Source: a virus
DNA: 64,000 bases
IMG/VR virus record: IMGVR_UViG_3300022407_006288
Span: 66,873 to 130,872 of that record
Direction: 5' to 3' (one strand)
Positions 4,059-43,550 of the stretch are shown here, piece after piece; position 1 is the stretch's first letter, and the number at the start of each line of letters is the position of its first letter. The notes under the pieces were generated by a model. The model saw only the letters and a program-made list of their open reading frames with translations, had not been told where the DNA came from and did not search any database. Position numbers and translations under genes: made by a program.

Positions 4059-4157
4059 ATAGCAATAAAAGGACCAAAATTAACCAAGACACGAGCCAAA
4101 AAAGTTAAAACTATGGCAACACGTGCCGCAAAGAAATCTCTTCGTATGAAGAAGTAA
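4059..4157 (+). CDS. Small Lys/Arg-rich peptide, putative ATA start (32 aa)
   Basis: TATAAATA (4033-4040), AGGA RBS, then ATA GCA ATA AAA...: (M)AIKGPKLTKTRAKKVKTMATRAAKKSLRMKK*. Confidence 0.55.
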   Translation: MAIKGPKLTKTRAKKVKTMATRAAKKSLRMKK

Positions 4158-4530
4158 GGAATTGTTGTAATTCCGGCAAAACAAAGGCGGGCAAGACGGC
4201 GGTTCGATTCCGCCCAGCTCCACCAAAAGCATATTGTAGAAACACACGAGCAGGTTTCACACTACCGCTGGTTACGTATAGAATCGTAAGTGGGTGTAGG
4301 CAGTATGCTTTTGATGGGGCTGACCAGGTTTTCGATTGCGCGAGATAGTGGAGCAGGCAACACAGTAGGCGATGACTGTCAATCAAGCAAAACTCGTAAA
4401 TGCAAACGCAAATACAACCGAGTCTCGCGTCGTGTTAGATCTTTCAGCTTTGGAAGACTCTGATATGATGATCGCTGCTTAAGAACCAGCAACTCTGAGG
4501 TTTGATCTAACCTTATAACCAAACTAGATC
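4158..4530 (+). ncRNA. ssrA: Circularly permuted two-piece tmRNA
   Basis: Acceptor piece first (T-arm GGCGG-TTCGATT-CCGCC, CAGCTCC-ACCA ending 4225), then a 90-nt intervening segment. Coding piece starts GGGGCTG at 4316 (G3:U70 Ala determinant); resume context TAAAT-GCA at 4402; tag ORF ends ...MMIAA-TAA at 4482. Outer boundaries approximate. Confidence 0.92.
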
Positions 4531-4532
4531 AA

Positions 4533-4556
4533 GCAGGAGCTTCGGCTCCTGCTTTT
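4533..4556 (+). terminator. Intrinsic terminator after tmRNA
   Basis: GCAGGAGC-TTCG-GCTCCTGC followed by TTTT. Confidence 0.85.
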
Positions 4557-4588
4557 ATGATAAATACAAAATAATAACGGGGGTAGGA

Positions 4589-12405: not shown

Positions 12406-12834
12406 ATGTGGATTGAAAATGTAGCTGCCGCCGATGTTTTGTCGAGAAATCATCGAGATGCCGGGCACAACAGTATGCTGATTAGTATTGCTGACCCAGG
12501 CGGGTGGCATCCTACGCCCTCGCATAATTTTAAAGAAATTCACGATTTTGAATTTTCCGATTTGGAAAAAGATCAGAAAATTATGGGTTCTGCAGTTAAG
12601 ATTTTGGATGAAGATGCAGAAAGACTTGTGCGTTTATTGCAGCGTGCTTTTGAAAATCAAATGAATGTTGTGGTACATTGTGTGGCAGGTATATGCAGGT
12701 CAGGTGCAGTTTGCGAAGTAGGCATCATGATGGGCTTTGAAGATACAGGCAGATTTCGTAATCCAAATCTACTGGTCAAACACAAAATGATGCAAGTGCT
12801 AGGGTGGAGTTACAACGAGGAAAACAATGCATAA
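12406..12834 (+). CDS. Protein-tyrosine/dual-specificity phosphatase-like protein
   Basis: CX5R motif VHCVAGICRSGAV. Confidence 0.85.
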   Translation: MWIENVAAADVLSRNHRDAGHNSMLISIADPGGWHPTPSHNFKEIHDFEFSDLEKDQKIMGSAVKILDEDAERLVRLLQRAFENQMNVVVHCVAGICRSGAVCEVGIMMGFEDTGRFRNPNLLVKHKMMQVLGWSYNEENNA

Positions 12835-13252
12835 TATGAAAAAGTTTTTATTTATTGCACTACTATTTACAAATATTTGCTGTTATGCTGCAGAGATGAC
12901 GTTGCCTATTCGCGGAGTGGCCGATGGCGACACAATTAAAACTAAATTAGATTTACCGTGCCCGTTGTGTTATGTGTCCATTAGAATTTTGGGAATAGAT
13001 ACCCCCGAATCAACCCGCCTGGCCAAATGTCCGGCAGAATTGGCAAAAGGACTTGAAGCAAAGGCATTCCTTACCAATTTAGTCAAAGGACATGGTACCA
13101 TGACAGTACGACATGTCAAGTGGGATAAATATGGTGGCAGAATTGATGCAACCGTAGAAATTGATAATAAGAATGTTGCCGATTTGTTACTTGCAGCAGG
13201 TCTTGCAAAACCATATACCGGTCAAGGACCAAAACCCAATTGGTGCTCTTAA
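12827..13252 (+). CDS. Thermonuclease (SNase-like) with signal peptide
   Basis: DGDT, IRILGIDTPE, WDKYGGR motifs. Confidence 0.9.
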   Translation: MHNMKKFLFIALLFTNICCYAAEMTLPIRGVADGDTIKTKLDLPCPLCYVSIRILGIDTPESTRLAKCPAELAKGLEAKAFLTNLVKGHGTMTVRHVKWDKYGGRIDATVEIDNKNVADLLLAAGLAKPYTGQGPKPNWCS

Positions 13253-15043: not shown

Positions 15044-15111
15044 TCAAATCTCTTCAACACAATCAAGATCCTTTTGCAAATTATAATAGTTTTATAATTT
15101 GGTAAATCCGC

Positions 15112-15140
15112 TTGACAACTTGATAATATCTCTATACACT
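15112..15140 (+). promoter_or_regulatory. sigma70 promoter upstream of LuxR-type gene
   Basis: TTGACA-17 bp-TACACT. Confidence 0.65.
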
Positions 15141-15284
15141 GCGTATTGTGGTAAATAAATAATTTAACACACATCAAAAACTATAGGTGAAGCAGTATTA
15201 CTATAAAGTACTAGTACAGCTGATTATTTAAATAATTAGCAGTAGTACCATGTAAATAAACTTATAATAATATGCGAGGAATCT

Positions 15285-16433
15285 ATGATACACACAGACT
15301 TGGAAACAGACTCACTCGGTACTAAGTTACCCACAATTGTTTATTTCAGTTATGATCATTCACACTCAACTGAGTGTACCGACCGAATAAGTAGCACAGC
15401 CACTTGTACATTTAAATTTCCCAGCACATGGAGTGAACTGGCAACCCATTTAGAGTCGGGTGAACATATAGTTGCAATTCATATCAGCATGATAAAAAGA
15501 TCTGATTCATCTATTTTGAATTTTTTAGGTGCAATTAGGGGATTATGCAAATGCATGCCTGTATCTGACAGCTTAAAAATTGCAGTGATCATTGATCAAG
15601 ATACCGCTCAACATGAAATTGCCGAATTACACAAACACAAAGTATTTGGTTTACTGCTAGATATTGAATGCTATCCCATTGATGACGTGTGTGCATCAAT
15701 TGACTCGCTGATAGCAGGCATACCCCATTGGCCCGAGCATATTACTAGTCAGCTGCCCAATCCACTGGCCACACTGGTAACTGTGTATTTTCGAAAAGAT
15801 TGGGCTAAACATATAACTCCTCTCATGGCAGAAACTCTCAGTGGACAGATAACTTTAAATGTACGTTACTGTACCAGCTGGGAGGACTTGGATACAGCAC
15901 TTTTGGAAAATCCTCATCAGCTGATAATACACGCTGATACCATCCGAGAGTTAAGTACCACCATACCAGAAATTATTTCAATGATCGAAACACGGTTAAG
16001 ACTTTATGGACCACGTATACCCGTAGCAATTGAAATTGAACCCACTACTGCCTTGCATGTCATAAAAGAATTAAAAAAATGCGGAGTATTTGGTATTGTG
16101 CCCAGTACAGCCACATGGGGAATTAATGAAACAATTACTGCTATTCGCGCACTGGTCAAACGTGTTCCCTATTGGCCCAAGCATATTATTGATCAGCTGC
16201 CCGGCAACAAACTGGTTATAAAAAACAAAAAATCCGGAATTAGTGTAACACCACGACAACGTCAAGTTTTGGATCTTATATGCAATCGCGGATTAAGCAA
16301 TAAACAAATTGCCAAATCATTAAGTATTTCCGAAAGTACTGTAAAAATACATATTGGGTGCATACTCAAAGAGTACGGTGTAAGAAATAGAACACAGCTG
16401 GTTTTGGCTGCAGCTTGTCTCCTGAAAGCATAA
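15285..16433 (+). CDS. LuxR/NarL-type regulator with two tandem atypical receiver-like domains
   Basis: C-terminal HTH TPRQRQVLDLICNRGLSNKQIAKSLSISESTVKIHIG...RNRTQLV; internal duplication ending IPHWPEHITSQLP / VPYWPKHIIDQLP. Confidence 0.88.
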   Translation: MIHTDLETDSLGTKLPTIVYFSYDHSHSTECTDRISSTATCTFKFPSTWSELATHLESGEHIVAIHISMIKRSDSSILNFLGAIRGLCKCMPVSDSLKIAVIIDQDTAQHEIAELHKHKVFGLLLDIECYPIDDVCASIDSLIAGIPHWPEHITSQLPNPLATLVTVYFRKDWAKHITPLMAETLSGQITLNVRYCTSWEDLDTALLENPHQLIIHADTIRELSTTIPEIISMIETRLRLYGPRIPVAIEIEPTTALHVIKELKKCGVFGIVPSTATWGINETITAIRALVKRVPYWPKHIIDQLPGNKLVIKNKKSGISVTPRQRQVLDLICNRGLSNKQIAKSLSISESTVKIHIGCILKEYGVRNRTQLVLAAACLLKA

Positions 16434-16530
16434 TAGCCCACGCCCTCGTGGCATATTTTTTTAAATAAAAATCTATAACGCTGAAGTGCTATTCCTGCTA
16501 AAGTACTTGGTATAATACCTGTTTAATCTT

Positions 16531-16574
16531 TAAATAAATGCATACTACAAATGGAAATTGGTTCTGTCTGTAGT
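16531..16574 (+). repeat. Duplicated promoter/leader hairpin, copy 1 (copy 2 at 17326-17369)
   Basis: 39/44 identical; TAAATA element followed by ACTACA/TGTAGT stem. Confidence 0.85.
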
Positions 16575-16642
16575 ACAAGATCGACTAAACTGTGTTTGCG
16601 TAATTTATGCAGTTAGTCTTATTTAATTAAGGAATTATTATC

Positions 16643-17206
16643 ATGGCCGATATGACAGGACTAACAACTGATCCATTTTTCTCATTACTTGCTCAAGTGC
16701 AAGACGTCAAGACCAAAGTTTCAGACAGCATTTTTGAAAACTACAAGCTACAAATAGCACAATCAAACGACATCAACAACCGTGCAATGCAAGTTGCATT
16801 GCATGACACAGCCGCATTTGCTGATTTGAAAAATGCGGTTTCTAATGGTACATTGCAGACCATGCTTGCTGCTGCACGCACTGATGCTGCTATTGCCGCA
16901 ACTGCAATGAGCACACAACGTGTTGTCATGGAACAGGGCGAAGCTACTCGTGGATTAATTGCTGCACTAAACACACAAAACTTGAATACTGCATTGATCA
17001 ACACAAACACAGCTCTTTACAGTCTAAACGGACAGTATTCCGGATTAGGTCTTGCATATGGCGGCGCTGTTGCTGCTGTTCAAAGCGCAAATTCTGTTAG
17101 CTCAGTGAATGCACTACACAGTGCTGTATCCGGTCAGAGATTGATCAATACAGGTAGCATGGCTTCTACATCACAGACATCTACACCGACATCTATTGGC
17201 GGCTAA
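16643..17206 (+). CDS. Ala/Thr/Asn/Gln-rich coiled-coil protein, paralog A1 (unknown function)
   Basis: AAGGA RBS; about 80% identical to 17424-17984. Confidence 0.9.
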   Translation: MADMTGLTTDPFFSLLAQVQDVKTKVSDSIFENYKLQIAQSNDINNRAMQVALHDTAAFADLKNAVSNGTLQTMLAAARTDAAIAATAMSTQRVVMEQGEATRGLIAALNTQNLNTALINTNTALYSLNGQYSGLGLAYGGAVAAVQSANSVSSVNALHSAVSGQRLINTGSMASTSQTSTPTSIGG

Positions 17207-17226
17207 AAGTACACTTGTACTTTACA

Positions 17227-17254
17227 AAATACCTTCCTTCCGGGAGGTATTTTT
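17227..17254 (+). terminator. Intrinsic terminator between paralogs
   Basis: AATACCTTCC/GGGAGGTATT stem plus T-run. Confidence 0.75.
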
Positions 17255-17325
17255 ATGGCTAAAATTTACATAATATTGAAGTTGTAGTTGTACTAATGCA
17301 TGTATTAAATCCCCAGTCTATCCAT

Positions 17326-17369
17326 TAAATAAATGCATACTACAAATAGAAATTGGTTTTACTTGTAGT
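17326..17369 (+). repeat. Duplicated promoter/leader hairpin, copy 2
   Basis: See 16531-16574. Confidence 0.85.
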
Positions 17370-17423
17370 TATTATAACTGAAGCTACAAAAGTTTTGGTA
17401 TTTTTAATTAAGGAATTATTATC

Positions 17424-17984
17424 ATGGCCGATATGACAGGACTAACAACTGATCCATTCTTTTCATTACTTGCCCAAGTGCAAGATGTCAAGACCAAAGT
17501 TTCAGACAGCATTTTTGAAAACTACAAGCTACAAGTAGCACAAGCAAATGACATCAACAATCGCGCAATGCAAGTAGCATTAAGCAACGCAACTGCACTC
17601 ACCGACTTGAAGCAGGCAACTACTGAAAGCACACTACAAACCATGCTTGCTGCTGCACGCACTGATGCTGCTATTGGCGCAACTGCAATGAGCACACAAA
17701 GTGTTATTATGCAGCAAGGTGAAGCAACTCGTGGATTAGTTGGCGGATTGAACACACAAAACTTGAATACCGCATTGATCAACACAAACACAGCTCTTTC
17801 TAGCCTAAACGGTCAATACTCTGGCTTAGGTCTTGCATATGGCGGCGCTGTTGCTGCTGTTCAAAGCGCAAATTCTGTTAACGCAGTAAATGCTCTTAAT
17901 AGCGCAATTGCAACACAAGGCCTGGTTAACACAGGTACTATGACTGGAACTACACAAACCGCAACACCAACATCTATTCGTTAA
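17424..17984 (+). CDS. Ala/Thr/Asn/Gln-rich coiled-coil protein, paralog A2
   Basis: First 37 aa identical to A1. Confidence 0.9.
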   Translation: MADMTGLTTDPFFSLLAQVQDVKTKVSDSIFENYKLQVAQANDINNRAMQVALSNATALTDLKQATTESTLQTMLAAARTDAAIGATAMSTQSVIMQQGEATRGLVGGLNTQNLNTALINTNTALSSLNGQYSGLGLAYGGAVAAVQSANSVNAVNALNSAIATQGLVNTGTMTGTTQTATPTSIR

Positions 17985-18001
17985 TAGATAAGGAGGTTAT
18001 T

Positions 18002-18175
18002 ATGTTTGGATCTAACATTGGATACGGGGCCTGGTCGCCACGTGGATATTTAGGTGCCGGCATAGGATATCCATATTATGGATATTCTGGATGTGGATAC
18101 CCGTACGGCGGATGCCCATACGGTGGATATCCAGGATGGGGATTTTACAATTCTCCCTATCTTCCGTTAATTTAA
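18002..18175 (+). CDS. Gly/Tyr/Pro-rich micropeptide (57 aa)
   Basis: AAGGAGG RBS; MFGSNIGYGAWSPRGYLGAGIGYPYYGYSGCGYPYGGCPYGGYPGWGFYNSPYLPLI; not in ORF track. Confidence 0.85.
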   Translation: MFGSNIGYGAWSPRGYLGAGIGYPYYGYSGCGYPYGGCPYGGYPGWGFYNSPYLPLI

Positions 18176-18193
18176 GTTATAGATAAGTGGATC

Positions 18194-18221
18194 ATAGACT
18201 GACTCACGTGAGTCAGTCTAT
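18194..18221. repeat. Perfect 28-bp palindrome
   Basis: ATAGACTGACTCAC|GTGAGTCAGTCTAT. Confidence 0.95.
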
Positions 18222-18238
18222 TTTAAAGGAGAACAAAA

Positions 18239-18442
18239 ATGTACCCAGGATACTTATATCCCTATTACAGAAGCTATGCATATCCTTACCCAAGTTGGGT
18301 GTATGGTGGTTATACAGGTTATGGTGGCTACGGTGGTTATGGATCAAATATTATAGGCAGCGCAATTGCCAATCAAAGTGTTATAAACACCGGCAACATT
18401 GCAGGATTTACACAAACAGCCACACCCACAGTTATTTGGTAA
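18239..18442 (+). CDS. Tyr/Gly-rich micropeptide with shared C-terminal motif (67 aa)
   Basis: AAGGAG RBS; YPY/GGY repeats then SAIANQSVINTGNIAGFTQTATPTVIW. Confidence 0.88.
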   Translation: MYPGYLYPYYRSYAYPYPSWVYGGYTGYGGYGGYGSNIIGSAIANQSVINTGNIAGFTQTATPTVIW

Positions 18443-18459
18443 TAACAGAAAGGTCTTAT

Positions 18460-18642
18460 ATGTATAAAAAAATATCACATAACATATTAAAAGAACACTT
18501 TGATAGTCCGGCATTTATGCCAACATCTAGTTTACCTAAATTAGGTGATAATTTTATACATCCCGGTAATGGATCGTTATCTATTAACAATCCATTACTT
18601 TATTATGTGATAAATGAAGACATTATGCAATTTAGGAAATAA
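18460..18642 (+). CDS. Small hypothetical protein (60 aa)
   Basis: AAGG RBS; MYKKISHNILKEHF... Confidence 0.7.
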   Translation: MYKKISHNILKEHFDSPAFMPTSSLPKLGDNFIHPGNGSLSINNPLLYYVINEDIMQFRK

Positions 18643-18643
18643 T

Positions 18644-19150
18644 ATGACTGATTTTGAAGATAACAAACATAGGTTAGAATTAATTAAAATGTCAAGGGAA
18701 CTGCTTAATGAGGAATACATTAATCGACGTGCTCAAGATCATAATAGATGGTTGGCAGAAAGTGACGTAATGTGGAAAGCAAAGCGAGTAAAACTTCCAT
18801 ATCCGCCCTTTGCTGCATATCCTACAGATGAAGAAATTGTTGCAAAAGCAACTGTTCTTTATAATTTTGTAAACACAAAACCTGCGGTTGAGCCCGCTCC
18901 TGCACCAATTGATGTGATACCAACCCCGGTGGAGATAGCAGCAACTAACAAAATTTTATCAACACCTATAGCAGAGCCCTTGCAATCTCCATGGGACAAA
19001 TATTTAACACCCGAACAAGAGCCTATATTGAACGAACCAGTTGCTGACATATCAGTCCCTCAAACACCGGTCGAAGAAACTCAATCAACACAGTCGTCGT
19101 TAGTACAGAATTTATTACCGGGCTGGATTAGAAGAAATCAATCAGCCTAA
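18644..19150 (+). CDS. Conserved phage protein with Pro/Glu-rich tail
   Basis: RLELIKMSRELLNEEY...PYPP..YPTDEEIVAKATVLYNFV pattern; ATG 18644 with AGGA. Confidence 0.75.
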   Translation: MTDFEDNKHRLELIKMSRELLNEEYINRRAQDHNRWLAESDVMWKAKRVKLPYPPFAAYPTDEEIVAKATVLYNFVNTKPAVEPAPAPIDVIPTPVEIAATNKILSTPIAEPLQSPWDKYLTPEQEPILNEPVADISVPQTPVEETQSTQSSLVQNLLPGWIRRNQSA

Positions 19151-19158
19151 GGAGTGTT

Positions 19159-19650
19159 ATGTTTAACAATTTAGGTATATTTAGCAATAATTTAATCACC
19201 CCTATTATACTTCGTGGTGCCACATCGCCGTGTCTAGCACCACGTATTCCTGTATGTCCGAGTCCGGCTTCCGATGCCATAGAAATCGGCGGCATTGGTA
19301 ACGATATTATTAACATCGGCGGCGGGGGTGTAGGACCACCCGGCCCCCCAGGACCACCCGGTACTATTGGACTGGTACCAGTGACTGATGTAGCAACACC
19401 CACATACACGGCATTAAGCACTGACTATTTTTTATGTGTATTAACCAATGGATTAGTTACTATTACATTACCAACAGGTATATTAGGGACAGTATACATT
19501 GTTAAAGATTGTTTTGGTGATGCAGCAAACAACCCAATTACTATTCAGGGTACAGGCGGGCAGTTAGTCGATGGCAGTACAGCCACTATTAACACCAATT
19601 TTGGTAGCTTACAATTCGTATTCAATGGATTTGATTGGAGCATAGTATGA
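19159..19650 (+). CDS. Short collagen-like protein with C-terminal beta-domain
   Basis: GVGPPGPPGPPG; C-terminal domain homologous to 20926-21327. Confidence 0.8.
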   Translation: MFNNLGIFSNNLITPIILRGATSPCLAPRIPVCPSPASDAIEIGGIGNDIINIGGGGVGPPGPPGPPGTIGLVPVTDVATPTYTALSTDYFLCVLTNGLVTITLPTGILGTVYIVKDCFGDAANNPITIQGTGGQLVDGSTATINTNFGSLQFVFNGFDWSIV

Positions 19651-19692
19651 TTTATTTGATAAAATTAACAATAGACTTTAAGGAGAATTAAT

Positions 19693-20850
19693 ATGTTAGG
19701 TATATTTTCAGCAAACTTTCCTCAAGGACCTCTGCGTCCGGGAATTAACTTACGTAGACCGGTTCGGGTGTTTGCAGGACAAATTGCAAATTATAACCGC
19801 GGATATGGTTCAGTAAACACCAACTCAATGAGTGGTACAAATCTACTTCGTTTAACTGTTACTAGTACAACACCGCAAACAATTCCTCAAGGACCCGGTA
19901 TTGTGCCTCTTAATGACATGTTATTGACCAGTACAATTAATGGAAACTTTGTGTCAACATTTGACGCTGACTACGGTATTGTCGGCGACTTAATCGATAT
20001 TACTGCCGCAGGTGCCGCCGCTAATACAGCGTTAGCTGCACAGTTAGCCGCATTACCCGGTGGCGTTCCACACGGTGCTGTATTTGGCAACGGCGAAGTT
20101 TTAACACCCGGTATTTACGATGTAGTAACTCCTGCTGCTATTCAAGGCATTTTGACATTGAACGGTGGCGGTGATCCCAATGCATTGTTTGTGATCAGAG
20201 TTGCCGGCGCATTAACCAGTGTGGCCGCAAGTCAGGTGTTATTAACAAATGGTGCCACAGCCAACAATGTGTTCTGGGTAAGTCAAGGTGCCACAGCACT
20301 AGGTGCTAATACCATCTTTCGTGGCACAGCATTGGCAGTAGGGGGAGCCGCTGGCATAGGTGCCGGCAGCATAGTTAATGGTAGATTGTTATCGACACTT
20401 GGCGCAGTTACTACTGACACCAGTATAGTAACACAACCAGGTGCTACAACAACTGCTATTGCATTGGGTGTGCTTGAAAACTTTGCTCTATTCACCAATA
20501 GCGGTGCGGTAGCCAATACAGGGACAAGCATCATAACTGGGAACATTGGAACCAATCTAGGACTTATTACTGGATACGGACTCCCAACTATAGTAAATGG
20601 CAACGTATATATTCCGGGAAGTTTGGCTGCTGGTCCAGTAGCCGCTGACTTTGGTATCTATAAGAATGGAGTATTGATTCCGGGTACATTAGTTTCAGTA
20701 TCCGGTCCAACAACAATTACTGCCGCTCACGTGACATCAACGGGTCCTGTGGTATTGTTAGTGGGTGATGTAGTTACTGCTAGAGCAACTGCTGTACTAG
20801 GCACATTAACAGTGAATACAAGAACATTAACTTTACAACAGGTACCGTAA
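19693..20850 (+). CDS. Ice-binding (DUF3494-like) domain protein with BclA-CTD-like flanks
   Basis: LTPGIY...LTLNGGGDPNALFVIRVAGAL...LTNGATANNVFWV...FRGTAL...NGRLLS; flanks QTIPQGPGIVPLN and FGIYKNGVLIPGT...LLVGDVVT. Confidence 0.85.
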   Translation: MLGIFSANFPQGPLRPGINLRRPVRVFAGQIANYNRGYGSVNTNSMSGTNLLRLTVTSTTPQTIPQGPGIVPLNDMLLTSTINGNFVSTFDADYGIVGDLIDITAAGAAANTALAAQLAALPGGVPHGAVFGNGEVLTPGIYDVVTPAAIQGILTLNGGGDPNALFVIRVAGALTSVAASQVLLTNGATANNVFWVSQGATALGANTIFRGTALAVGGAAGIGAGSIVNGRLLSTLGAVTTDTSIVTQPGATTTAIALGVLENFALFTNSGAVANTGTSIITGNIGTNLGLITGYGLPTIVNGNVYIPGSLAAGPVAADFGIYKNGVLIPGTLVSVSGPTTITAAHVTSTGPVVLLVGDVVTARATAVLGTLTVNTRTLTLQQVP

Positions 20851-20925
20851 TATAGTTTATTTATAGAGCCTACCCGAATTAAAGAGAGACAAAATTTAAC
20901 TAACAACATCACAAGGAAAATTAAA

Positions 20926-21327
20926 ATGTCATATACAAACAATCCAACTTCGATACTTGCCGGACCAGGTATCACCGTTGTACCAACAACAGGTACCGGT
21001 GCAGAAGTAGTTACCATCAGTGCTAGCGGCGGCGGATTCGTAGATATTAGAACTGCTGTTGCAACTCCTGTTACGGTAGTGGCTGCAACTGATAATATCA
21101 TTGATGTAGCTGTTCCAGGTCCAGTTGCCGTAGCAGTAACATTACCTGCTGGTGTACTAGGCCAAGAGTTCACAATCAAAGATGGATTAGGTTTAGCAGC
21201 ACCTGCAACTCCAATCACTATCACACCAACTGCTGGTACAATTGATGGTGCAGCAACTGCAGTTATCGATGCACCATATGGTTCATTAACATTTGTGTAC
21301 AATGGTACGCAATGGTTGATTCTATAA
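20926..21327 (+). CDS. Small beta-rich fibre-type protein
   Basis: VTLPAGVLGQEFTIKDGLG...ITI...IDG...YGSLTFVYNGTQW; paralogous to C-terminus of 19159-19650. Confidence 0.8.
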   Translation: MSYTNNPTSILAGPGITVVPTTGTGAEVVTISASGGGFVDIRTAVATPVTVVAATDNIIDVAVPGPVAVAVTLPAGVLGQEFTIKDGLGLAAPATPITITPTAGTIDGAATAVIDAPYGSLTFVYNGTQWLIL

Positions 21328-21345
21328 ATTTAATAAGGCAATATC

Positions 21346-21876
21346 ATGTACACACGAGTAAATGTATATCCAAACGGGGCACCGATTCCTTCGGTGCTCC
21401 CTGATAGTTATCAATCTTCAATGTATGGTAATACCCCAGCCGGCCAGAGTTGTTCCAACTGTAAAAATTTTAATACAACTAACTTCTATTGCGAAGCATG
21501 GAAAGCCCCGGTTAAACCGCGCTGGTGGTGCGCTGGCTGGGCTCCCGTAGCCAAACTAACACGCCACGGTACAGTAGCTGTGCTATCAAAAAAGATAACA
21601 ACTAGCATGGTAGAAGAGCACTTTGCCGAGGTCCCGAAATTGGCATCAAGTCAATTAAGTTATGGTAACGAAAACGAAGAAGATGTTATCAGGCTTAATG
21701 TTCCCCTAATGATTCGTTTGTTAGAGTGGGCTAGAGAAGGCGCCAGCAAAGATGCCGAATTGCACATTATTGCCGAACGATTAATTGATCTCAGCGATGA
21801 GGGCGACACACTCACAATGAGTGATTATCCTGATATAGTTGTCCAAGAGACTACAGTAGATAGAAAGGAAAATTAA
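21346..21876 (+). CDS. HiPIP-like [4Fe-4S] domain fused to a small helical domain
   Basis: GQSCSNCKNF...YCEAWKAPVKPRWWCAGW (Cx2Cx9Cx12CxxW). Confidence 0.7.
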   Translation: MYTRVNVYPNGAPIPSVLPDSYQSSMYGNTPAGQSCSNCKNFNTTNFYCEAWKAPVKPRWWCAGWAPVAKLTRHGTVAVLSKKITTSMVEEHFAEVPKLASSQLSYGNENEEDVIRLNVPLMIRLLEWAREGASKDAELHIIAERLIDLSDEGDTLTMSDYPDIVVQETTVDRKEN

Positions 21877-21879
21877 ATC

Positions 21880-22488
21880 ATGAATAAAGTGATTATAATA
21901 CATTACGAAGAAGATCCTGAAGCAATCTCAAAATTTAAAATTTTGTCACAGCGATTATGGAGCGAACATAATAGTTATACAAGAAATGGCATAATTAGTG
22001 CATTAGCAGGATTGCCCGATCTTGGCGATGTAATGAATAGATTAATGAGAAATCAAGAAGATATTGGTCAATTTATTGCTCCGTATTATGGTGCGGAAGC
22101 TGCTACTTCATTAACTAATTTGCTAAAAGAACATATTAATATTGCAGCTAACATAGTTGTTGCAGCAAGTCAAAATAAAAGTACGGCTGATCTCGAAGCC
22201 ACATGGCAGGCTAATGCAGTGTCTATAGCTGATCTCTTAGCTTCGCTTGATCCAGTCTATTGGTCTAAAAATATTGTACTGCCTGTGCTTCAACAACATT
22301 TAGCATGTACATTAAAAGAAATTGTATCTAGGTCAAAAAAAGATTGGTTAACAGATATTGCTGCCTATGATGACTGTTCTGCAGTAGTTGCAGTCCTTGC
22401 TGAAGTAATAGCCTACGGTATTGTGTATAACTTTCCGGAAGAATTTATTATACAATATAAATCAAAGTCTTTTAAAAAAGTATACTAA
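21880..22488 (+). CDS. Four-helix bundle protein (Bacillota family often mislabelled 'acetylglutamate kinase')
   Basis: RLWSEHNSYTR..II....LPD...V..RL.RN..DIG..IAPYYG......L..LLKEHI.IA; no kinase motifs. Confidence 0.7.
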   Translation: MNKVIIIHYEEDPEAISKFKILSQRLWSEHNSYTRNGIISALAGLPDLGDVMNRLMRNQEDIGQFIAPYYGAEAATSLTNLLKEHINIAANIVVAASQNKSTADLEATWQANAVSIADLLASLDPVYWSKNIVLPVLQQHLACTLKEIVSRSKKDWLTDIAAYDDCSAVVAVLAEVIAYGIVYNFPEEFIIQYKSKSFKKVY

Positions 22489-23240
22489 AAGCAAAGCCCT
22501 TTTGGTCGGGCTATAAATTACAAAAGGATGTCAGCGATGATCGAGATTTTGTATATACGCCCACCAATAAGCCCCTACGGGATGTTGTTGACCTGCGAAA
22601 ATGGGCAAGCCCCATTGAAGATCAAAAATATCTAGGAAGTTGTACAGCAAATGCAATTGTGGGTGCACATGAGTTATTGACAATTAAAGAATTTCCAAAA
22701 CAATTTGTTGACCTCAGTAGACTATTTGTGTACTATAACGAGCGATTAATAGAAGGCACAATTAGCGAAGATTCCGGTGCATACCTAAGAACAGGAATTA
22801 AAGCAGTAAAGACTTATGGAATATCTACTGAAGCACTGTGGCCTTATAATATAAGTAAGTTTTCAACTACACCATCTCCAGAAAGTTACCAAGATGCAAA
22901 GTATAGAAACATTAAAAATTATTATCGTGTAGATAGCAATGATAAAATGCTTGATGCACTAAATAATGATATACCTGTGGTTGTAGGCGTGTTGCTTTAT
23001 GAAGCATTTGATTCACTGGATAAAAATAATTACGTACTTGGTTTACCAGCTGACACAGAATCATTTACAGGAGGGCATGCCATGGTGCTAGTTGGATATG
23101 ATTTACCAAAAAAATTATTTTTAGTTAGAAATAGTTTTGGCATTGATTGGTGTATTGATGGATATTGCTGGATTACATTTGCATACATGGAAGAAAAATT
23201 ATTAGATGCTTGGATATTTGATATTGATTTAATTACTTAA
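22482..23240 (+). CDS. Papain-like cysteine peptidase (C1A)
   Basis: Frame upstream of the track ORF contains VDLRKWASPIEDQKYLGSCTANA (Gln/Cys); GGHAMVLVGY and VRNSFG complete the triad. No ATG/GTG/TTG before the Cys; ATA at 22482 assumed. Confidence 0.88.
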   Translation: MLKAKPFWSGYKLQKDVSDDRDFVYTPTNKPLRDVVDLRKWASPIEDQKYLGSCTANAIVGAHELLTIKEFPKQFVDLSRLFVYYNERLIEGTISEDSGAYLRTGIKAVKTYGISTEALWPYNISKFSTTPSPESYQDAKYRNIKNYYRVDSNDKMLDALNNDIPVVVGVLLYEAFDSLDKNNYVLGLPADTESFTGGHAMVLVGYDLPKKLFLVRNSFGIDWCIDGYCWITFAYMEEKLLDAWIFDIDLIT

Positions 23241-23308
23241 ATAAGGGCCATTTTCGTCCATATTACTGATCGTATAGATAAATAAGTGTTAATACTAGTG
23301 AGATTACT

Positions 23309-24523: not shown

Positions 24524-24595
24524 ACTAATTTTAACATATTTGTAACACAATCGTACAGAAGTATGATAAGTAACATTACTCAAAGGAGTAATGCA

Positions 24596-24829
24596 ATGAC
24601 AGTTGAAATTTTTGGAGCCGAATGGTGTACTTTTTGTAAACAAGCAGTTATACTCTGTGAAAGTAAAAATATGCAATATGATTATATTGACATAGACGAA
24701 ACTTCAAATTTGAAAATTTTAGAAGAAAAACTCGGAAATAAAGTTAAATCCATACCACAAATTTTCATAAATGGCACACTTATTCCGGGCGGATATAGTG
24801 GACTTAAACAGGAATTAGAAAAAGATTGA
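24596..24829 (+). CDS. Glutaredoxin
   Basis: WCTFC active site, SIPQIFING; AGGAG RBS. Confidence 0.92.
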   Translation: MTVEIFGAEWCTFCKQAVILCESKNMQYDYIDIDETSNLKILEEKLGNKVKSIPQIFINGTLIPGGYSGLKQELEKD

Positions 24830-25066: not shown

Positions 25067-25933
25067 TTAAGAAACAATTGGTATAGCTGTTGCTGTTACA
25101 CTTGCAGGAGGTGCTGCAAAAGTAATTGTAGCTGATACATAACCAGTACCGCCAACTATGTTGGTAATTCCTGTTACTGCTCCGCTGGCGTTTATTACTG
25201 CTGTAGCAGAAGCACCTGTACCCGGACCACCAATAGTCACTATTGGTGCAACTGAGTAATAGTTGCCGCCAACAAGACTGGTAATACTAGTAAATGCTCC
25301 AGCATTAACGACAGCAGTAGCTGTTGCTGTAACCGCTGCGGCTGGCGCAGCAATTGTGGCTGTTGCGTTTGTTGCATATCCCGAACCTGGATTTCCAACA
25401 GTGATAGCAGTTACAACGCCACCAACAACTGTTGTTGTCAATATAGCACCTGTACCCGGCGGGCTTGAAATAGTAATTGATGGTACAGATGTATATCCGC
25501 GACCGCCATTAGTAATTTGAAAGCTAAGAATTTGTCCAGCCACACCCATATTAATTAGGTCAGCTTGCCCCAATGCAACAGCCGGCCGTGTTGACCAGGT
25601 ATAGCTGACAACTGTACCATTTTCAAAAACATCAACACGATATTGTGCTATCTTTGAGCAAGGTACTGGTGAACCTCCAAACGGAGTTGCAAGAATAAAA
25701 CATTCTCCCGTATTTAGCGCACTAATACTTGATGCATTAACCATGAATACAATTTCAGGTGCATGTATTTGTGCTGAATCTTGAACCATATAAGCACTTG
25801 AACCTGTTTGTTTTACAATGAATGCATCCGAGTATGATACGCCATCAGCAAATTTAACACCGTTTACTCTTATATGATTTGATCCAGGACCAACTGGTTC
25901 TCCGAACCATTTTTTCTGAATTGGTTTTCCCAT
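25067..25933 (-). CDS. Virion structural protein with repeated beta-sandwich units
   Basis: ITNGGRGYT / VGNPGSGY / VGGNYY / VGGTGY repeats; minus-strand GATAAATA at 26013-26020. Confidence 0.7.
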   Translation of the reverse strand: MGKPIQKKWFGEPVGPGSNHIRVNGVKFADGVSYSDAFIVKQTGSSAYMVQDSAQIHAPEIVFMVNASSISALNTGECFILATPFGGSPVPCSKIAQYRVDVFENGTVVSYTWSTRPAVALGQADLINMGVAGQILSFQITNGGRGYTSVPSITISSPPGTGAILTTTVVGGVVTAITVGNPGSGYATNATATIAAPAAAVTATATAVVNAGAFTSITSLVGGNYYSVAPIVTIGGPGTGASATAVINASGAVTGITNIVGGTGYVSATITFAAPPASVTATAIPIVS

Positions 25934-26033
25934 GTTATTTTCCTTTTGAATGGGTACTCCTCGATTGAGGGATCTCCATCATTCAGGGTGGAACTATTTC
26001 CACCATGTACGTTATTTATCAAATAATTTCCAC

Positions 26034-41975: not shown

Positions 41976-43550
41976 ATGGCAATTTACCAAGATGATAAAC
42001 TTGTAAAACGTGCTTATAGAAAGATAACATATACAAAAGAACAGATTGATGAATTAAAAGCATGTATGGACCCGGAAACAGGTCCTACATATTTTATCAA
42101 AAATTTCATGTATATTCAGACCACTACAGAAGGTCGACAAAAATTACAATTATTTGATTTTCAATACGAATTAATTAATAACTATAATAGATATAGGCGT
42201 TCTGTAAATATGCTATCTAGGCAATTAGGAAAAACCACTATTGCCGCCGGATATCTACTATGGTATGCCATGTTTCGGGAAGATGCAACAATATTAATTG
42301 CATCTAACAAGTACGATGGCGCCCAAGAAATTATGCACAGAGTTCGTTATGCATATGAATCTGTACCCGATCATATTCGGGCAGGTGTAAAAACATACAA
42401 TAAACGTTCCATGGACTTTGATAACGGTTCTAGAATTGTTGCAACAACCACTACAGAAAACACCGGCCGTGGTATGTCACTATCTTTAGTTTATCTTGAC
42501 GAGTTTGCGTTCGTTGAACCAAATATTGCAAAAGAATTCTGGACTTCTTTATCCCCGACCTTGTCAACAGGCGGTAAATGTATTATTACATCAACCCCTA
42601 ATACTGACGAAGATCAGTTTGCTGATATTTGGTTCGGAGCAAATAAAATGGTAGACTCTCACGGTAACGAAACAGAACTAGGGGTAAATGGATTTAAACC
42701 ATTTATACGTACCTGGAATGCCAGACCAGATAGAGATCAAGCCTGGGCCGATGCAGAACTGGCTGCACTACAAGAAGATCGTTTCCTTAGAGAACACATG
42801 TGTCAATTCATCACATTTGAAGAGACACTTATTAATCCTGTTAAATTGGCCAATTTGGAATCTATTCAGCCAATACGAAAAACCGGACAAGTGCGTTGGT
42901 ATGCACCAATTAATCCAAGTTTAACATATGTAGTTTCTCTTGATCCTTCAATGGGTACAGGCGGCGACAATGCAGCAATTCAGATACTTGAATTGCCTAC
43001 TCTTGTGCAGGTGGGAGAGTGGAGCAATAATAAAGCTCCAATTGAAGAACAAATTAGAACAATGAAAAAAATTCTAGAGGAATTATACCTAAGCGGTAAA
43101 CCAGAAATTTACTGGTCAGTTGAAAGTAATTCACTAGGAGAAGCTGCTTTAGTTGTTATCAGGGATACCGGCGAGGAAAACTTCCCGGGCACAATGTTGC
43201 ATGATCCAAAGAACAAATTACAAGGTAGACACGGTCGACGCGGCGGGTTTATTACAACTAATAAATCAAAACTTGAGGCATGTGCTAAATTAAAATTTTT
43301 AATTGAATCGGGAAAAATGCGAGTAAATTCCAAGGGATTATTATCGGAACTTAAAGTTTTTGTTTCCAGGGGCAATACATTTGAGGCCAGAATTGGGCAA
43401 ACAGATGACTTAATCATGGCAATGGTTTTAGCAGTTCGCATGACAGATTACATATCTACATGGGATGATAAATCACAGGCTGCAATTAATAGCAATATAT
43501 CATCGGACGATGATATGTCTTTTGATGGTCCAATGCCGATATTTATTTAA
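41976..43550 (+). CDS. terL: Terminase large subunit (T4 gp17-like)
   Basis: SRQLGKTT Walker A, VYLDEFAFV Walker B, ITSTPN, SLDPS nuclease, DDLIMA. Confidence 0.96.
   Translation: MAIYQDDKLVKRAYRKITYTKEQIDELKACMDPETGPTYFIKNFMYIQTTTEGRQKLQLFDFQYELINNYNRYRRSVNMLSRQLGKTTIAAGYLLWYAMFREDATILIASNKYDGAQEIMHRVRYAYESVPDHIRAGVKTYNKRSMDFDNGSRIVATTTTENTGRGMSLSLVYLDEFAFVEPNIAKEFWTSLSPTLSTGGKCIITSTPNTDEDQFADIWFGANKMVDSHGNETELGVNGFKPFIRTWNARPDRDQAWADAELAALQEDRFLREHMCQFITFEETLINPVKLANLESIQPIRKTGQVRWYAPINPSLTYVVSLDPSMGTGGDNAAIQILELPTLVQVGEWSNNKAPIEEQIRTMKKILEELYLSGKPEIYWSVESNSLGEAALVVIRDTGEENFPGTMLHDPKNKLQGRHGRRGGFITTNKSKLEACAKLKFLIESGKMRVNSKGLLSELKVFVSRGNTFEARIGQTDDLIMAMVLAVRMTDYISTWDDKSQAAINSNISSDDDMSFDGPMPIFI

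Follow-up and report, generated by a model that had tools for sequence, protein, structure and literature searches.

A co-inherited thirteen-gene cassette of fibre-type, low-complexity and tagged proteins in uncultured freshwater jumbo myophages, a candidate accessory fibre or decoration system

The cassette and its phage setting

A cassette of thirteen genes (g01 to g13), all encoded on the plus strand and together covering ~8 kb (positions 15285-23240), is located within a 64,000-nucleotide stretch of viral DNA, hereafter the window, to which all positions refer. The window represents bases 66873-130872 of a 130,872-bp IMG/VR viral contig (IMGVR_UViG_3300022407_006288). All thirteen co-oriented genes were found in the places given by an initial annotation, which had been made from the sequence alone. 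Comparison with related viral loci shows that a clade of uncultured freshwater jumbo myophages carries the cassette as a genuine, widely distributed and uncharacterised module; the products of the cassette most likely form an accessory fibrous appendage or surface layer which is carried on, or released with, the virion. The parts of the cassette appear partly familiar, namely the fibre knobs, the regulator and the peptidase, and partly without known relatives. Only three items are recognised by Pfam: the GerE helix-turn-helix (HTH) of g01, the Ice_binding domain of g09 and the Peptidase_C1 domain of g13, which also gives a weaker match to Peptidase_C39_2. A crude hydropathy scan of the thirteen proteins identified neither signal peptides nor transmembrane segments, the former having also been reported as absent in the initial annotation, and this suggests that the products can exit the cell only at lysis.

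The completeness of the contig was estimated by CheckV at 33%, suggesting that it derives from a jumbo phage with a genome of roughly 400 kb. Encoded in the window are rIIA/rIIB, a 927-amino acid (aa) tail sheath, a tail tube, the large terminase (TerL), a single-stranded DNA-binding protein and a helicase, and the portal, head maturation protease and major head protein are encoded on the contig upstream of the window. The TerL shares 60% identity with that of the Pseudomonas jumbo phage PA5oct, and near-identical DNA is contained in freshwater metagenome runs from 13 studies. The results computed here and described below are the co-conservation of the genes, the motifs and the match between their types, the identities of the domains and the organisation of the promoters.

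Co-conservation across phages

Relatives were collected by an IMG/VR search with A1, the first of the two long rod proteins (A) of the cassette. This yielded 41 related viral loci, in which the gene order was read by tblastn and classification at the level of open reading frames. In most of the 41 loci a common order is held, with the regulator followed by one or two A genes, the Gly/Tyr-rich peptide genes GY1 and GY2, one or two tagged helical-bundle genes and p178 (g07), and then by three to five collagen/knob paralogs, an optional protein with a four-cysteine (Cys4) domain, often another bundle and a C1 peptidase. The regulator is located next to an A gene in ~35 loci, while GY1 and GY2, the two Gly/Tyr micropeptides of the initial annotation, are kept as proteins in ~30. 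The flanks of the 41 loci show no synteny with the window. A search for syntenic relatives based on rIIA recovered one locus, where the contig extends 4.7 kb upstream of rIIA without containing the cassette. Furthermore, when five family profiles were compared against the 131-kb contig, matches were observed inside the cassette only.

A profile search of 1.8 billion cluster representatives identified 106 members of the A family, including relatives of 230-450 aa which match over the C-terminal half and the tail (..ETRQGMVNFGTMAGVGQTSTSNNVR). All of the relatives that were looked up (10/10) are metagenomic and are either without a name or labelled 'hypothetical protein'. One A-like relative sits in a distant, minimal cassette adjoining rIIA/rIIB, which comprises a regulator (256 aa), an A-like protein (331 aa), a collagen/knob protein (192 aa), a Tyr-rich peptide (71 aa), a MYKK-tagged protein (106 aa) and a p178-like protein (165 aa). 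At another distant locus, a C1 peptidase is encoded three genes downstream of an A-like gene. The synteny search suggested in the initial annotation therefore supports the co-occurrence of these genes, both through the order kept in most of the 41 loci and through the distant minimal version. Lone C1 homologs can be observed in Burkholderia phage FLC9, XacN1 and a 595-kb uncultured phage, from which the rest of the cassette is absent.

An A gene with 62% identity is also found on a 10-kb contig (L047; CAZXGO010000088.1) that has been binned in an uncultured Chitinophagales metagenome-assembled genome. This may be a host hint or a binning artefact, and is too weak for naming a host.

Regulator and promoters

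The first gene, g01 (15285..16433), encodes a NarL/LuxR-family regulator with two degenerate receiver-like N-terminal repeats and a GerE HTH (PF00196; E-value: 5e-15; 55.3 bits against a cut-off of 23.5). The internal N-terminal repeat is seen by tblastn, and the family profile matches NarL (residues 65-209), VraR, GerE and VpsT, with the alignment extending into the NarL receiver (residues 65-125). No match of the regulator to Pfam Response_reg was found, and the acceptor column is occupied by H or N in most close relatives and by D in distant ones only. The profile alignments to NarL 65-209, VraR and VpsT point to a response-regulator-like protein with a degenerate receiver, in line with the atypical LuxR regulator proposed at the outset.

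The 8-mer GATAAATA occurs in 39 copies in the 131-kb contig, is 17-fold enriched upstream of genes and is typically located 15-50 nt before structural genes, including the sheath and tube genes (examples in the window: 32866, 35810, 36676, 39369, 43584 and 23277, and 26020 on the minus strand). It resembles the T4 late promoter TATAAATA, of which it is probably this phage's variant. No copy of GATAAATA is present between 13125 and 23276, a span covering the whole cassette; the motif reappears at 23277, before the first gene beyond the cassette.

The region upstream of g01 (15100..15284, plus strand) carries TAAATAAAT-type elements at 15152 and 15229, and the same, putatively functional 9-mer also precedes A1 and A2. 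The A1 control region (16470..16642, plus strand) harbors TACT-type boxes, TTTAAATAAAT at 16529-16539 and an inverted repeat (ACTACA..TGTAGT) at ~16545-16578, and the A2 control region (17260..17423, plus strand) contains a second copy of the promoter-like element and a hairpin. A 23-nt element is identical upstream of the two A genes, where none would be expected by chance. The A-gene promoter architecture is common to ~30 distinct loci and consists of two TA(A/G)TACT-type boxes ~17 bp apart, a TAAGTAAT-like -10 element with the consensus T(T/C)TAA(G/C/A)TAAT and, a few bases after the latter, a 5′ hairpin whose sequence varies between phages but whose pairing is kept. A similar -10-like element is found upstream of the regulator gene and of the distant L044 regulator.

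A terminator scan placed terminator-like hairpins after g01 (16438-16451) and after A1 (17233-17247) which, in combination with the tight packing of the genes from A2 to the C1 peptidase gene, point to three likely transcription units, comprising the regulator alone, A1 alone and the run from A2 to C1. The separate promoter class and the dedicated activator suggest that the cassette is expressed conditionally or with a different timing. The initial annotation had proposed a single regulated assembly module, and the co-conservation, the shared and matching motifs described below, the A-gene promoter architecture and the lack of the late motif all agree with this proposal.

In the most distant variants, L041-L043, the exact T4 late-promoter core TATAAATATA, followed by a hairpin, is located upstream of the first A gene, and as such the cassette promoter class may be derived from the late class.

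Rod proteins, Gly/Tyr-rich peptides and a shared C-terminal tail

A1 (g02; 16643..17206) is a 187-aa, Ala/Thr/Asn/Gln-rich rod protein with a conserved C-terminal tail motif, and its paralog A2 (g03; 17424..17984), which heads the tightly packed run, shares 83% identity with it. An AlphaFold2 model of the rod, made from a 23-sequence alignment and with a predicted local distance difference test score (pLDDT) above 90 for ~100 residues, predicts one uninterrupted helix (residues 11-163) followed by a disordered C-terminal tail. The duplicated A/T/N/Q-rich pair of the initial annotation is recovered in A1 and A2. No match to the rod was found in Pfam, PHROGs or a PDB profile search. Where the window was compared with the L029 and L043 records, A shares 67-72% identity where TerL shares 56%, and 45% where TerL shares 36%; in the two records compared, the rod (16643-17984 in the window) appears better conserved than the large terminase (41976-43550).

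In T4 fibritin (wac), the whisker protein of T4, a long α-helical rod ends in a short C-terminal element that is not helical, an organization that the A protein of this T4-like phage would share. However, A shows no sequence similarity to fibritin and occurs in two copies, its promoter and terminator are its own, and its tail motif is also found, type-matched, on an unrelated Gly/Tyr peptide.

The two peptides encoded downstream of A2 are GY1 (g04; 18002..18175), which comprises 57 aa and is rich in Gly, Tyr and Pro (G 28%, Y 21%), and GY2 (g05; 18239..18442), a Tyr/Gly-rich peptide of 67 aa with the same C-terminal motif as A1 and A2. The combined Gly and Tyr contents are 49% for GY1 and 37% for GY2, and GY variants containing Cys occur. 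The common tail, which includes the INTG..QT.TPT motif recognised in the initial annotation, covers ~28 residues (..SAIxxQxx[IV]NTGxxxGxxQTxTPTxI.) at the C-termini of A1, A2 and GY2. The tail type of A is that of GY2 in 32/32 distinct loci, including 24 'NTG' loci and 8 'V/IG-AGA-xGG' loci with none discordant (Fisher p 4e-7, a statistic that ignores shared ancestry), and the finer sub-variants agree too. The shared tail residues of A1 and GY2 are encoded in the window by largely different codons (4/14 identical), and recent gene conversion was therefore dismissed as a sufficient cause of the matching.

Short G/N/Q/T-rich motifs on two unrelated proteins encoded by adjacent genes are also a feature of the amyloid signalling motif pairs found in fungi and filamentous bacteria (HET-s/NWD2 type, BASS), to which the cassette motif, in changing in concert between genomes, may be analogous. 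In the cassette, however, both copies of the motif are C-terminal, and neither an NLR-type receptor nor a pore-forming effector was found.

A shared N-terminal tag and the proteins that carry it

At the N-terminus of the helical-bundle paralogs, of the HiPIP-like proteins and of a small helical 'LIIRL' family lies a tag of ~17 residues (MYKKITHxIVEEHFxHP), which is thus present on at least three unrelated families. The initial annotation had pointed to the corresponding KKI..[KE]EHF motif, which is present in the window, where the tag survives on g06 and is degenerate inside the g11 fusion. The C-terminal tail and the N-terminal tag provide the strongest evidence that the products of the cassette act together.

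The g06 product (18460..18642) is a 60-aa remnant that retains the MYKKISHNILKEHF tag and, of the helical-bundle family, the first ~50 positions. Its counterpart in relatives is a full tagged helical-bundle gene of ~230 aa in the same position, which suggests that this phage has lost roughly 500 bp here by deletion. An untagged copy of this usually tagged family is encoded by g12 (21880..22488). It is confidently modelled as a helical bundle (pLDDT 92), as anticipated in the initial annotation, with about six long helices rather than the four then proposed. The bundle has no match in Pfam and a marginal one only in PHROGs, its profile search returned metagenomic hypotheticals only, and comparison of the model by Foldseek and VIA returned generic helical bundles only (best match: a designed barrel, Z 9.3). 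In the ESM Atlas, the clusters closest to g12 are Bacillota hypotheticals (score 0.93-0.94), which are treated as a lead only.

The g11 product (21346..21876) is a fusion of a mini HiPIP-like Cys4 domain (residues 1-~70), the degenerate tag (SKKITTSMVEEHF) and a small helical 'LMIRLLEWAR' domain, three parts which are encoded by separate genes in relatives. The Cys4 pattern, C-x2-C-x9-11-C-x12-C with WWC, is invariant in 10 sequences, and all four Cys align with those of PioC, which together with other HiPIPs provides the top matches in a PDB profile search (E-value: 0.14-3). The best ortholog scores 15.8 bits against Pfam HIPIP (PF01355; E-value: 0.017), below the cut-off of 22, and the window copy shows no match to this family. 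Of the HiPIP fusion proposed in the initial annotation, the Cys and aromatic spacing thus holds and the Pfam threshold is not reached, leaving a likeness that is weak but consistent.

Short N-terminal tags ending in hydrophobic-x-Glu on unrelated proteins are also found among the T4 internal proteins, whose targeting sequence has I-A-E at its end and is cleaved by the prohead protease. The cassette might by this comparison not be one machine, but a set of internal head proteins that bear a T4-style capsid-targeting sequence and would be injected along with the DNA, encoded beside ordinary fibre genes and a regulator, as would be consistent with the ~12-17-residue tag ending in I-V-E-E on otherwise unrelated proteins and with the T4-like head genes of this phage. 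However, the cassette tag is longer, running ~17 residues through HP, and the tagged genes are located away from the head genes. Within 131 kb, including the portal, head protease, scaffold-like and major head genes, no tag is found outside the cassette. Furthermore, A, GY and fibre genes are located between the tagged genes within a single packed run, and the tagged genes stay linked to them in distant phages with non-syntenic flanks and lack the late promoter motif. An explanation by capsid targeting is, as such, highly improbable.

The g07 product (p178), whose gene probably starts at 18644 (18644..19150), consists of a conserved helical N-domain of ~90 aa, a Pro/Glu-rich linker and a short basic amphipathic C-terminus that is a possible membrane or docking helix. 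Neither g07 nor whole-length g11 has a match in Pfam or PHROGs, and the ESM Atlas relatives of the g07 N-domain, again a lead only, are small phage hypotheticals. A linker and C-terminus resembling those of membrane-targeting helices would suit a structure that stays within the cell and organises replication or particle assembly, be it a scaffold akin to a cytoskeleton, a condensate or a platform tethered to a membrane. The long helical A rod, the low-complexity GY peptides, the absence of the late promoter motif from the cassette and the high conservation of A relative to TerL, which would suit a core infection function, can be read in the same direction. However, the collagen/XD1-knob paralogs and the adhesin-like ice-binding cargo described below are hard to place inside a cell, and related cultured phages, PA5oct among them, lack the cassette, so that it is not a core function of the wider lineage. 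We consider an intracellular structure decidedly unlikely.

Fibre knobs, collagen stretch and ice-binding gene

Two fibre proteins are encoded in the cassette of the window. The g08 product (19159..19650) carries a short collagen stretch, (GPP)3, in agreement with the collagen-GPP protein of the initial annotation, and a C-terminal XD1-like beta knob, while that of g10 (20926..21327) combines an MSYTNNP.. N-terminus with an XD1-like beta knob. In relatives, the collagen repeats range from 5 to >30 triplets. Between g08 and g10, the beta domains share 43% identity (E-value: 4e-17), and the paired beta domain initially proposed is thereby substantiated. The knob profile matches T4 baseplate gp10 (PDB 2fl8/5hx2; residues 68-143; E-value: 4e-4) and the XD1 region of CBA120 TSP4-N (PDB 7rej; residues 99-168; E-value: 8e-3), while phrog_20556, annotated as 'baseplate protein', matches the knob with an E-value of 2.4e-7. 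Four of the 16 knob members match Pfam T4_gp9_10_N (PF07880; best E-value: 9.7e-5), and Phage_depo_C is matched by 8/16. No C1q/TNF-like trimerisation domain was found on the collagen/knob proteins, the C-terminus matching gp9/gp10 XD1 and Phage_depo_C.

Domains of the gp9/gp10 type are building blocks of baseplate and branched tailspike receptor-binding complexes, and the XD1 fold recurs as a glycan-binding domain (PMC8825819). The matches to gp9/gp10 XD1 suggest that the knob proteins are phage tail-fibre-type parts. The initial annotation had regarded its proposal as refuted should the genes be ordinary tail-fibre parts, a description which applies to the XD1-like knob proteins and does not extend to the rest of the cassette. 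The cassette resembles the branched T4 gp9/gp10-type complexes (T4 gp10, CBA120 TSP4, RaK2/phiKp24) in its consecutive small, trimeric-looking fibre paralogs with exchangeable distal parts, in the knob matches to gp10 68-143 and TSP4-N XD1, and in its jumbo myophage setting. It differs in that the XD1-like domain is located at the C-terminus of very short proteins (100-260 aa), in the lack of enzymatic tailspike bodies and of the late promoter motif, and in the linkage of the fibres to a regulator, a rod, GY peptides, tagged bundles and a C1 peptidase.

Between the two fibre genes, g09 (19693..20850) encodes an ice-binding-like (DUF3494) beta-solenoid protein (Pfam Ice_binding PF11999; E-value: 1.6e-28; 100.2 bits against a cut-off of 28.7), a match that indicates family membership only. 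The initial annotation had described a BclA-like/ice-binding fusion, of which the ice-binding part stands; neither collagen repeats nor a BclA-like part is present in g09. The gene is found in 2/42 loci, namely the window and L016 (84% identity), and its occurrence in only 1/41 related loci suggests that it is exchangeable cargo outside the core of the cassette. The purpose of freeze or desiccation persistence put forward initially rested on this variable gene and is accordingly not retained. A common N-terminal anchor of g08 and g09 was considered and dropped, 'LGIFS' being the only match (BLAST E-values of 1.3 and 25).

The knob and cargo data bear directly on the central idea of the initial annotation, in which the products form a body apart from the virion, for example a coat, matrix or occlusion-like shell that is cross-linked and surrounds the virions or the dying cell. 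Such a body would be an analogue of the GerE-regulated spore coat or exosporium with its collagen nap, Gly/Tyr coat peptides and protease maturation. As protein types, a GerE-family HTH, a collagen-like protein, Gly/Tyr micropeptides and a cysteine peptidase are indeed shared with the Bacillus coat/exosporium programme, and the Gly/Tyr/Pro micropeptides and their Cys variants recall, by general analogy, the composition of spore coats. The regulation of the cassette differs from that of the virion genes, the HiPIP-like redox domain and the cysteine peptidase would suit cross-linking and maturation, the matching tails would suit a co-polymer, and the helical bundle finds its nearest ESM Atlas clusters, as a lead only, among Bacillota. 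However, no cassette protein shows sequence or fold homology to coat or exosporium families, the knob is gp9/gp10 XD1-like and not C1q/TNF-like as in BclA, and the cassette derives from a T4-like phage. The ice-binding gene, the basis of the persistence idea, is restricted to 1/41 related loci, and laccase, transglutaminase and peroxidase were not found in the domain searches of the cassette. Furthermore, no such structure is, to our knowledge, known for tailed phages. The resemblance to an exosporium or occlusion-like shell, and to its cross-linking, would thus be an analogy in composition and logic only, and a separate body is unlikely. A more specific version, in which A and GY2 form a cross-beta or templated co-polymer that, together with the fibres and the redox and bundle proteins recruited by the tag, would constitute a regulator-controlled coat or matrix apart from the canonical virion, a phage equivalent of the spore coat or exosporium aiding the persistence of particles in freshwater, appears doubtful to a still greater degree.

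The C1 peptidase gene

The last gene of the cassette, g13 (22476..23240), encodes a papain-family C1 peptidase in which the Gln, Cys, His and Asn are present. In the full frame, the Peptidase_C1 match reaches 55 bits (cut-off: 20.7) over profile positions 4-203 and the catalytic motifs DQ..GSC, GGHA and RNSFG can be recognised. The C1 homology and the open frame begin at ~22476-22482, and the catalytic Cys (GSCTA) is encoded upstream of GTG 22659. The papain identity proposed in the initial annotation is thus sustained, but not its start, which it had placed at this GTG. No ATG, GTG or TTG precedes the catalytic Cys in this genome, while a canonical start is located before the Cys in 19/19 C1 relatives. 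The frame of g13 is -1 relative to that of g12, the end of which it overlaps at TTTTAAAAAAG. The g12-g13 junction is identical in contigs from two other samples, and an assembly error was therefore rejected as the source of the anomaly. Possible routes of translation include ATA initiation and a -1 shift giving a bundle-peptidase fusion; an inactive, truncated product is likewise possible.

Proposed function

We tentatively suggest that the cassette represents an accessory system, under separate regulation, for fibres or decoration of the virion, a reading which falls somewhat short of an even chance. It draws on the fibre-type knobs, the long rod with a short terminal assembly element, the exchangeable cargo and a synthesis in the cytoplasm with release at lysis only. 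In this system, the orphan NarL/LuxR-type regulator with its degenerate receiver would activate a cassette-specific promoter class rather than the general late promoter, the class being made up of the two TA(A/G)TACT boxes, the TAAGTAAT-like -10 element and a 5′ hairpin that would be stabilising. The A rods, abundantly made, would co-assemble with GY2 through the matching C-terminal motif of ~28 residues, and GY1 and GY2 would be a source of sticky, low-complexity material. This scaffold would be decorated by three to five trimeric fibre paralogs with T4 gp9/gp10 XD1-like knobs, whose stalks would be collagen-like or of other kinds and whose cargo, of which the ice-binding-like domain is an example, would be exchangeable. 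Recruitment of the helical-bundle, HiPIP-like and small helical proteins would take place through the shared N-terminal MYKKITH..EEHF tag, and the components may be processed by the C1 peptidase.

Several points weigh against a virion-borne fibre system. T4-type virion genes use the late promoter, the motif of which the cassette lacks. We know of no phage fibre system that includes Gly/Tyr micropeptides, a HiPIP-like domain or a papain-type peptidase, nor of one with a dedicated response-regulator-like activator. Homologs of A, p178 and the knob are absent from 50,697 cultured phage records, which were searched at the nucleotide and protein levels with the cassette DNA, A2, the distant A-like protein, g07 and g10 as queries. 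The knob-domain matches are modest (E-values of 1e-4 to 1e-7), and the agreement between the tail types of A and GY2 is not corrected for shared ancestry. Furthermore, we infer all of the assembly steps and the location of the products from sequence, and the link between regulator and promoter from adjacency and the conserved boxes only.

Few jumbo-phage genes of unclear role group into a bounded, co-inherited module with its own regulator and promoter class, as those of the cassette do. In the cassette, fibre domains are furthermore found together with kinds of protein that phage particles are not known to contain; among these unusual parts are the Gly/Tyr micropeptides, the mini HiPIP-like domain, the papain-type peptidase and two kinds of shared terminal address tag. 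Should the cassette build a regulated, optional surface layer, virion decoration could be a conditional programme, and should the matching tails drive templated co-polymerisation, viral self-assembly would gain a new principle. For applications in targeting and assembly, the short tags and tails could serve as tools.

Neighbouring genes

Eight tRNA genes are scattered upstream of the cassette, at 2014, 7126, 8059, 8187, 8278, 13312, 13857 and 14956, and a tmRNA-like gene with an unusual tag peptide was identified by ARAGORN at 4133-4573. Just beyond the cassette, a late structural gene on the minus strand (25067-25933), with its own GATAAATA at 26020, codes for a 288-aa protein whose repeats match head-closure, baseplate-wedge and virion structural PHROGs (E-values down to 2.5e-15). 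Two small genes nearby received motif labels by eye. The product of the first (12827-13252) combines a signal-peptide-like N-terminus with a staphylococcal-nuclease-like GIDTPE motif, and that of the second (24563-24829) appears glutaredoxin/NrdH-like, with a CTFC motif.

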